Source: an uncultured Coriobacteriia bacterium
GTDB taxonomy: Bacteria; Actinomycetota; Coriobacteriia; Coriobacteriales; QAMH01
Assembly: GCA_902475535.1 (NCBI GenBank)
Contig: CABRZR010000002.1
Coordinates: forward strand, 2,124-66,123
Reading direction: 5' to 3'
Length of the DNA: 64,000 nucleotides
The notes below the pieces were generated by a model. That model was not told the origin of the DNA. It did no database searches and saw nothing but the letters and a program-made list of their open reading frames with translations. The first letter of the stretch is position 1, and each line of letters starts with the position of its first letter. This document shows, piece by piece, positions 11,101 through 12,546 of the stretch. Both the position numbers and the translations under genes were made by a program.

Positions 11101-12546
11101 ACGATGCGCACCTTCCACTCCGGCGGTGTCGCGGGCGAGGATATCACGCAGGGTCTTCCGCGTGTCACCGAGCTTTTCGAGGCACGCAAGCCCAAGGGTC
11201 TCGCCATCCTGGCCGAGATTTCCGGCACGTTGCAGATTTCCGCGACCAAGGACAGCCGTACGCTCACCATCCACAACGAGGACGGCGAGGTGCGCGAGTA
11301 CCAGACGGGCGCACGCGCGCAGCTCATGCCGGGCGTCTCCGACATGTGCACCGTCGAGGTCGGCCAACAGCTCACCAAGGGTTCCATCGACCCGCACGAG
11401 CTTCTGCGTCTCACCGATGTCAACACGACGCTGCGCTACATCGTTGACCAGGTCCAGGACGTGTACACGTCCCAGGGCGTCGACATCAACGACAAGCATG
11501 TCGAGGTCATCGCACGCCAGATGCTTCGCAAGGTGACGGTCACCGATCCGGGCAGCTCCAAGTTCCTACCGGGTGCTCAGGTCAACCGCTACGAGTTCGA
11601 AGAGGAGGTCGACCGCATCATGCTCGAGGGCGGCGATGTGCCCACCGCACGTCCGCTCATCCTCGGCATCACGAAGGCCTCGCTGGCCACGGATTCGTTC
11701 CTGTCGGCTGCTTCGTTCCAGGAGACCACCAAGGTGCTGACCGATGCCGCGATCGAGGGCAAGGTCGACAAGCTCCAGGGCCTCAAGGAGAACGTTATCA
11801 TCGGCAAGCCCATTCCCGCGGGCACCGGCCTCAAGCGCTATCGCGACTTGCAGCTCACCTACAAGGGCGAGCGCATCGACCGCAGCGGTTCGAGTGCCGA
11901 TCGTCTGCCCGACTGGGCCCCCGAGGAGCTCCGCGAGACCGAGAGCCTGCTGCCGCAGCCGCAGGAGTGGGCCATCAACGGCGAGGAGTACCTGGGCGGT
12001 GCTCCGGGCGATATGTCGATGTTCCTCAATGGCGGCTACCTCGGTGGCCGTGGGCCGCAGCTCGCACCCGAGCTTGCCAAGCTGTATCTCTTCGACGACC
12101 TGGGTGTCAGCCAGCGCTGGGCCAACAAGTTTAGCGAGGCCGGCATCGAGATGGTCGGCGACCTCGTCGGCAAGACCGAGGACGAGCTGTTCCGTATCGA
12201 GGGCATTGGCGTCAAGGCAATCGAGGAGCTCAGGGCCGGTCTCGAGGCACGCGACTTGCTCTACATCCTCGACGATCCCAAGAAGAACGACGAGCCGGAT
12301 GCCTCGCAACTGCTCGAGATGCTGTTCTCGCCGGAAGACGCGATGTACATGGGCGCCGATGTGCCCCAGTCTTACAGCGCCGATCCCGACGACTTCATCG
12401 GCACGACCTCGCAGCGCCATTCGTCTTCCGATGAGGATGTGCTCAACGAGTTGCTTGGCGGCCTGAGCGATTCCGGCTTCGGCATCACCGACGAGGAGAC
12501 CGAGAAGCTCGAGAACACGCAAGACGACGACGGTCTGATTGGCTAG
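8128..12546 (+). CDS. rpoC: DNA-directed RNA polymerase subunit beta-prime, with C-terminal extension
   Basis: 1472 aa. Has the zinc motif [23 protein letters not shown] and the catalytic NADFDGDQM. It starts 3 nt after the rpoB stop. Confidence 0.98.

Follow-up and report, generated by a model that had tools for sequence, protein, structure and literature searches.

The alpha subunit's C-terminal domain in RNA polymerase (RNAP), the alpha-CTD (Pfam family PF03118), is the classic mobile contact by which the bacterial enzyme reads UP elements and receives activators, and it is joined to the rest of alpha by a linker of roughly 15-20 residues. The present analysis concerns a second place in the enzyme where such a domain occurs, namely the C-terminus of the beta-prime subunit, RpoC, encoded in a stretch of 64,000 nucleotides (nt) from an uncultured Coriobacteriia bacterium (assembly GCA_902475535.1, contig CABRZR010000002.1, positions 2,124-66,123, forward strand), which is referred to here as the window. 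An earlier note on this DNA, made without database searches, had proposed that RpoC runs about 230 amino acids (aa) past its conserved core and that the extension contains a module resembling the alpha-CTD, and its author did not recognise the arrangement as a described feature. The extension measures 229 aa (aa 1244-1472), and it is close to certain that aa 1313-1383 form a genuine, divergent domain of the alpha-CTD family and that the module is real.

The doubt as to whether the feature had been described holds for the literature and fails for the databases. The core model TIGR02386 covers RpoC aa 12-1239 (1740.7 bits, cut-off 963.5), but NF011498 (PRK14906, an equivalog of 1459 positions) runs on into the extension, with aa 1-1461 lying on positions 1-1455 at 2639.7 bits (cut-off 1437), and the extension alone matches positions 1245-1455 at 232 bits. 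This end-to-end match places the window RpoC in an already catalogued family. PF03118 has been precomputed on long-form beta-prime proteins in public collections, and NCBI gives the name 'alpha C-terminal domain-containing protein' to fragments only, full-length proteins bearing the plain product name "subunit beta'"; neither the NF011498 model nor current product names mention an alpha-CTD or say what it does. The CDD title of PRK14906 is presumably "beta'/alpha domain fusion protein; Provisional". The 60 best matches in the Protein Data Bank (PDB) to the C-terminal 448 aa include beta-prime chains that align to about aa 1244, or to about aa 1259 in the case of the Vibrio cholerae chain, and none of the solved beta-prime structures among them contains the module. 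No paper describing or testing the fusion was found in the full-text literature searched, outside which lie some older surveys of RNAP domains, and the fusion is not described in PMC11515920, PMC5121209 or PMC8655204; the first of these, the 2024 BEAN/HABAS survey of beta and beta-prime domains, masked N- and C-terminal extensions. The long form is catalogued and apparently unstudied, so that the sequence itself is no discovery and the fold is not new, and the fusion represents a variant, widespread in Coriobacteriia, of an alpha-CTD module already known.

Identity of the domain and layout of the extension

Profile, sequence and fold comparisons agree that the module is of the alpha-CTD type. 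PF03118, with a gathering score of 23.8 bits, matches RpoC aa 1323-1373 at 33.1 bits in the whole protein and 34.7 bits in the fragment, over profile positions 16-66 of 67, whereas the generic helix-hairpin-helix (HhH) model HHH_5 (PF14520) scores 10.8-16.6 bits on the same protein against a threshold of 27 bits, the specific alpha-CTD model being the better fit of the two. The HhH segment proposed in the earlier note was located correctly at aa 1325-1372 (nt 12100-12243), as was the corresponding rpoA motif, which starts at nt 33457, and the hand alignment of the two, with 12 identities in 32 positions, is consistent with the BLASTP comparison of the beta-prime segment with the window's own RpoA CTD, in which 22 of 56 positions are identical without a gap (pair E 6e-12), well beyond chance. 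When the 229-aa extension was compared with all PDB sequences by phmmer, 50/50 matches were RNAP alpha subunits aligned over the CTD, the best being the Bacillus subtilis alpha-CTD (E 9.5e-6).

The fold was predicted by two AlphaFold2 runs on the extension, with 12 homologues and then with 76. Over aa 1313-1383 the predicted local distance difference test score (pLDDT) was 82-89 in the first run and 88-95 in the second, the rest of the extension reaching about 47-78. The predicted structure of the segment matches the compact helical alpha-CTD fold with its HhH; in two Foldseek searches of the PDB the top 46 and the top 50 matches respectively were all alpha subunits, and the predicted domain superposes on isolated alpha-CTD chains with template modelling (TM) scores of 0.65-0.86 and root-mean-square deviations of 1.4-2.9 A. 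The carrier of the extra domain is not RpoA, as it lacks the alpha N-terminal domains PF01193 and PF01000; all five Rpb1 domains of Pfam are found in it, together with the NADFDGD motif. The window's own RpoA retains an intact alpha-CTD that keeps 6/6 residues of the 265 determinant, the surface by which the DNA minor groove is contacted, and with both RpoA alpha-CTDs intact and a further copy on beta-prime the enzyme carries three alpha-CTD-type domains.

Linker, domain and tail follow one another along the extension (Table 1), and the tail has the acidic, disordered-looking character ascribed to it in the earlier note. In an alignment of 76 sequences the linker motif has invariant or nearly invariant columns L, P, A, P, L, L, P and W, and its predicted helix occupies extension residues 23-29 at a pLDDT of about 78. 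In the first tail motif F, S and P are invariant and S, Q, L, M, V and D nearly so, with a helix predicted at extension residues 149-157. The beta subunit, RpoB, also ends in an acidic tail, which begins where the Pfam domain Rpb2_7 ends at aa 1105 and matches no NCBIfam model; in 54/54 related loci such RpoB tails measure 64-206 aa, with aspartate plus glutamate (D+E) making up about 0.3 of the residues, and in many of them the last letters are ...DLIGEGEE.

Table 1. Positions in the window of rpoC, the parts of its extension and the related features of rpoB and rpoA
Feature	Position (nt)	Strand	Remarks
RpoB acidic C-terminal tail, aa 1105-1275 (171 aa)	7609..8121	+	D+E 0.31, net charge -51
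rpoC, beta-prime including extension	8128..12546	+	open reading frame (ORF), 1472 aa, stop codon 12544-12546
Last conserved beta-prime core motif, 18 residues, aa 1226-1243	11803..11856	+	motif position
Linker, aa 1244-1312	11857..12063	+	net charge -6, Gly-rich, predicted disordered, pLDDT ~50-78
Linker motif, short predicted helix, aa 1260-1281	11905..11970	+	LPxWAPxxLxxxExxLPQxxxW in 76-sequence alignment
Alpha-CTD-like domain, aa 1313-1383	12064..12276	+	PF03118 over aa 1323-1373 (nt 12094-12246)
Acidic C-terminal tail, aa 1384-1472 (89 aa)	12277..12543	+	net charge -19, pLDDT ~47-70
Tail motif SQLLxMVFSPxD, aa 1393-1404	12304..12339	+	alignment of 76 sequences
Second tail motif, aa 1437-1454	12436..12489	+	consensus ELDxLLG...GFG, recurs in most of 80 loci
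RpoA alpha-CTD, intact, aa 245-305	33415..33597	+	PF03118 97.5 bits; rpoA 32683-33624

The genes of the window are ordered rpoB-rpoC-rpsL-rpsG-fusA, followed by ribosomal-protein operons and rpoA, and a scan of the rpoC-rpsL spacer for terminators and promoters revealed nothing relevant. Further along, rplQ (33640-34392) encodes an L17 protein that at 250 aa has roughly double the usual length and carries a C-terminal extension rich in Lys, Glu and Ala; TIGR00059 covers only its aa 8-118, and the NCBIfam model 'L17, sunset domain variant' gives 159 bits, under its cut-off of 280.

Distribution, reading frame and selection

Scanning a single genome from each GTDB species produced at least 600 pattern matches, at least 550 of which were confirmed by tblastn, and the extension is thus encoded in at least 550 species genomes. 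The best 80 of these loci belong, bar a few records titled otherwise, to Coriobacteriia, with cultured Gordonibacter, Senegalimassilia, Raoultibacter, Enteroscipio, Adlercreutzia and Denitrobacterium among them. The DNA of the window itself is 98-99% identical to metagenome-assembled genomes of uncultured Coriobacteriia. In 80/80 of the fetched loci the domain and the core motif G[KL]xIPAGTG lie in one ORF at a spacing of 87-99 aa, and the uninterrupted rpoC ORFs among them are 1458-1532 aa long. The exact window RpoC falls in a public cluster of 288 members, the 15 listed members being 1472-1474 aa long and occurring on several contigs each, the longest of 1.3 Mb. Beta-prime proteins of 1464-1474 aa are found in cultured Gordonibacter, Senegalimassilia, Enteroscipio, Eggerthella, Paraeggerthella and Denitrobacterium, and the extension is also present on a beta-prime of the Atopobiaceae type.

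A divergent carrier, P0208 (L081 10001-14659 and L082 884-5542), is a beta-prime protein of 1552 aa whose core is only 52% identical to that of the window. Its N-terminal insertion is enlarged, and its linker, in which the linker motif is present, is much longer; the alpha-CTD forms the extreme C-terminus, an acidic tail being absent. Its rpoC is without rpsL downstream, and P0208 is known from metagenomes alone. The window RpoC has a Glu-rich, coiled-coil-like insertion in Rpb1 domain 1 (about 8540-8860 of the window, RpoC aa ~137-245), this domain measuring 411 residues against a model of 312 positions; the insertion in beta-prime is probably lineage-specific, and P0208 contains it in a larger version.

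The selection acting on the extension was estimated from nonsynonymous (dN) and synonymous (dS) substitution between the window and four relatives. The alpha-CTD segment gave dN values of 0.007-0.066 and dS values of 0.52-0.79, and with dN at 0.008-0.133 in the catalytic core the segment is equally constrained or more so, whilst the linker and the tail change more rapidly (dN/dS about 0.07-0.46, or about 0.1-0.46 for the linker taken alone). Among the 76 aligned sequences there are about 35 invariant columns, with a near-invariant domain core of 50 residues, and alignments of 12 and of 76 sequences showed three conserved short motifs outside it, one in the linker and two in the tail. The module is part of beta-prime under strong selection.

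The GC content at third codon positions (GC3) is 0.839 in the core and 0.843 in the extension, and because the two are equal the ORFs that overlap the extension in other frames, 11566..12555 (-) and 11744..12466 (+), are high-GC artefacts, a GC3 of 0.84 identifying the frame of rpoC as coding. The same composition has as a by-product an antisense ORF, stop-free over 2172 aa, that crosses rpoB and rpoC (4981-11499, minus strand) and is no gene. A natural split of the gene was considered for P0313, P0323 and others and was rejected on the DNA, in which there are N runs, one chimeric contig and one long-read assembly ridden with frameshifts. At L084 (6741-8286), L085 and L086, which are of the Atopobiaceae type by sequence similarity, public gene calls split rpoC at N-run gaps, producing spurious alpha-CTD proteins of 146 aa (P0313). 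These three loci also have, between rpoC and rpsL, a sigma-70-family gene (Sigma70_r2 and r4) and an overlapping ORF of 358 aa, both absent from the window.

Possible roles of the extension

An important consideration in attempting to assign a role to the domain is the state of its putative contact surface. By alignment to E. coli RpoA from NC_000913, four of the six residues of the 265 determinant (R265, N268, C269, G296, K298 and S299) are identical in the window beta-prime, R265 corresponding to R1330, N268 to N1333, G296 to G1361 and K298 to K1363. C269 is changed to K1334, which adds a positive charge, and D258/D259 are kept as D/D. The equivalents of R265, N268, G296 and K298 are the same in seven other beta-prime copies, and an eighth, P0208, has K at 268 and also T at 258. 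That the core of the minor-groove determinant is kept across copies favours a retained DNA-contact surface, and on sequence grounds DNA binding by the beta-prime alpha-CTD is plausible, though unproven.

The explanation that best accounts for the whole, acidic-tail gating included, is that beta-prime carries on a long leash a third contact module of the alpha-CTD type, and this is considered rather probable. A flexible linker of about 70 residues containing a short predicted helix leads into the folded alpha-CTD homologue and thence into an acidic tail of about 90 residues. The domain would make contact with the minor groove of DNA by way of the surface equivalent to R265, N268, G296 and K298, or with regulators, or both, and its reach would go much beyond what the short alpha linker permits; the acidic beta-prime tail, and perhaps the RpoB acidic tail too, would modulate or mask the contact surface. 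For the DNA-contact mechanism taken separately the chances appear about even or a shade below.

A number of observations weigh against this explanation. S299 (A1364) and E261 (G) are changed, and K297 is V, A or S in the beta-prime copies. The net charge of the domain is -7, where the same span has -1 in both E. coli and the window's own alpha-CTD, and that of the whole extension is -33, which argues against strong unassisted DNA binding. The PF03118 score is about one third of that of the window's own RpoA CTD (33-35 against 97.5 bits), suggesting that the function may have shifted. AlphaFold2 with 76 sequences gave no confident packing of the linker or tail motifs on the alpha-CTD (pLDDT 50-78), which leaves autoinhibition unsupported either way. 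Moreover, where the C-terminus of beta-prime lies with respect to promoter DNA is background taken from RNAP structures in general, and no experimental data on the beta-prime extension were found in the literature searched.

A more far-reaching version, in which the third alpha-CTD on its leash of about 70 residues would be a true reader of promoter DNA or activators, gated through autoinhibition by the acidic tails of both beta-prime and beta, is put forward only tentatively and is on the whole doubtful. If true, it would amount to a mode of promoter recognition or regulation that none of the model enzymes (the RNAPs of E. coli, Bacillus, Mycobacterium and Thermus) is known to have. As regards the second tail, we infer that the RpoB tail may belong to the same functional unit as the beta-prime extension. 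When the end of the window RpoC (12436-12543) was compared with the RpoB tails of loci L002-L080, motifs of the type (D/E)(L/I)(L/I)G were seen to recur in RpoB, as ELLG and DLLG, and in RpoC, as NELLGG and a terminal DDDGLIG. These brief stretches, acidic and hydrophobic in character, may be short linear motifs that the two tails share.

It may instead be the case that the beta-prime alpha-CTD docks proteins only, meaningful DNA binding having been lost, and that the motifs of linker and tail are further short binding motifs; its partners might then be transcription factors, a helicase, a domain of sigma or a factor acting in elongation or termination. Canonical alpha-CTDs are major protein-contact hubs, complexes with CAP and Spx are among the Foldseek matches, and the net charge of -7 against -1 in canonical alpha-CTDs, the divergence from PF03118 (33-35 bits against 97.5 for the window's own RpoA CTD) and the presence of three conserved short motifs in an otherwise disordered sequence all point in this direction. 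However, the four main minor-groove residues, which a purely protein-binding role would not need, are kept across divergent lineages, with the single change of N to K at 268 in P0208, and C269 has become K; nor is there a named partner. Exclusive docking is accordingly considered unlikely.

A further proposal gives the dominant part to the disordered acidic tails (net charge -19 on beta-prime and -51 on RpoB), which by analogy with the Firmicutes delta subunit and its acidic tail, a comparison that rests on established knowledge, might be built-in nucleic-acid mimics. The tails would suppress non-specific binding of DNA or RNA and aid recycling, and the alpha-CTD would be mainly an anchor or an autoinhibited partner. 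The proposal gains from the fact that acidic tails of low complexity and predicted disorder occur on both large subunits, the RpoB tail in 54/54 loci, but the tails evolve fast, no part of the extension is as constrained as the folded alpha-CTD, and P0208 keeps its alpha-CTD at the extreme C-terminus without any tail. This suggests that the core conserved in this feature is the domain rather than the tail, and a leading role for the tails is thought quite improbable.

Two other possibilities have been refuted. A frameshift or misassembly that fused rpoC to a separate alpha-CTD-like gene downstream, which the earlier note had itself raised and for which short stand-alone PF03118 ORFs in public gene calls might be cited (for example P0313, 146 aa, 54 members, downstream of a 1327-aa rpoC call), is contradicted by the origin of those ORFs in scaffold N runs, a chimeric contig and a noisy long-read assembly, by a reading frame that carries on across the N-run gaps, by the 80/80 in-frame loci and the identical 1472-aa protein in the 288-member cluster on contigs of up to 1.3 Mb, and by equal GC3 in core and extension together with purifying selection. 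Nor is there any real prospect of a chance or generic HhH similarity unrelated to the alpha-CTD, even though only a short region (about 55 aa) can be aligned and HhH motifs are widespread, when PF03118 exceeds its gathering score and HHH_5 does not reach its own, when all PDB sequence matches and top fold matches are alpha subunits and when alpha-CTD-specific residues are retained.

Comparison with known systems

Among the nearest known systems is the canonical alpha-CTD, which has the same fold, belongs to the same family and is likewise tethered to RNAP by a flexible linker, and with which the beta-prime copy shares the equivalents of R265, N268, G296, K298 and D258/D259. The two differ in that the canonical domain sits on the alpha N-terminal domain and the other on the C-terminus of beta-prime, in the length of the linker (about 70 residues, unlike the short one of alpha), in the changes of C269 to K, S299 to A and E261 to G, in a net charge of -7 as opposed to -1, and in the conserved acidic tail that follows the beta-prime copy. 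This is a clean departure from the model RNAP architecture, and with a third alpha-CTD on another subunit and on a longer leash, promoter architecture and regulation may differ from those of every structurally characterised RNAP. The lineage concerned is medically relevant, Coriobacteriia being a gut class that includes the drug-metabolising Eggerthella and Gordonibacter.

PF03118 occurs outside RpoA in proteins other than beta-prime. Among the metagenomic proteins P0126, P0138, P0194, P0217, P0255 and P0268 there are some with 11 tandem alpha-CTD repeats and also large helicase-type proteins (ResIII/SNF2/Mrr) with three or four alpha-CTD repeats at the C-terminus, and the domain is thus a mobile module well beyond RpoA. 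Unlike the beta-prime carriers, these are not RNAP subunits, and in them the domain is found as tandem repeats and in the company of ResIII, SNF2 and Mrr. A further metagenomic protein that is not an RNAP subunit, P0161 (1090 aa), has an N-terminus resembling the beta-prime tail motif together with an alpha-CTD of the beta-prime type (DDLGVSPRWANKFSDAGIETVAD...; PF03118 32 bits), followed by a Sigma70_r4-like helix-turn-helix, and it may represent a paralogous spread of the beta-prime-type domain.

Lineage-restricted additions of domains to the large RNAP subunits are known in SBHM/BBM2, BEAN, HABAS and SI3, and the beta-prime extension resembles them in this respect, but they are internal, beta-rich insertions whereas the extension carries a terminal, all-helical HhH domain. 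In eukaryotes the orthologue of beta-prime is Rpb1, the CTD of which consists of disordered heptad repeats. By analogy, the Rpb1 CTD has the same topological position and is likewise a flexible appendage and a possible recruitment platform, but there is no homology between the two, heptad repeats in the one case standing against a folded HhH domain with an acidic tail in the other.

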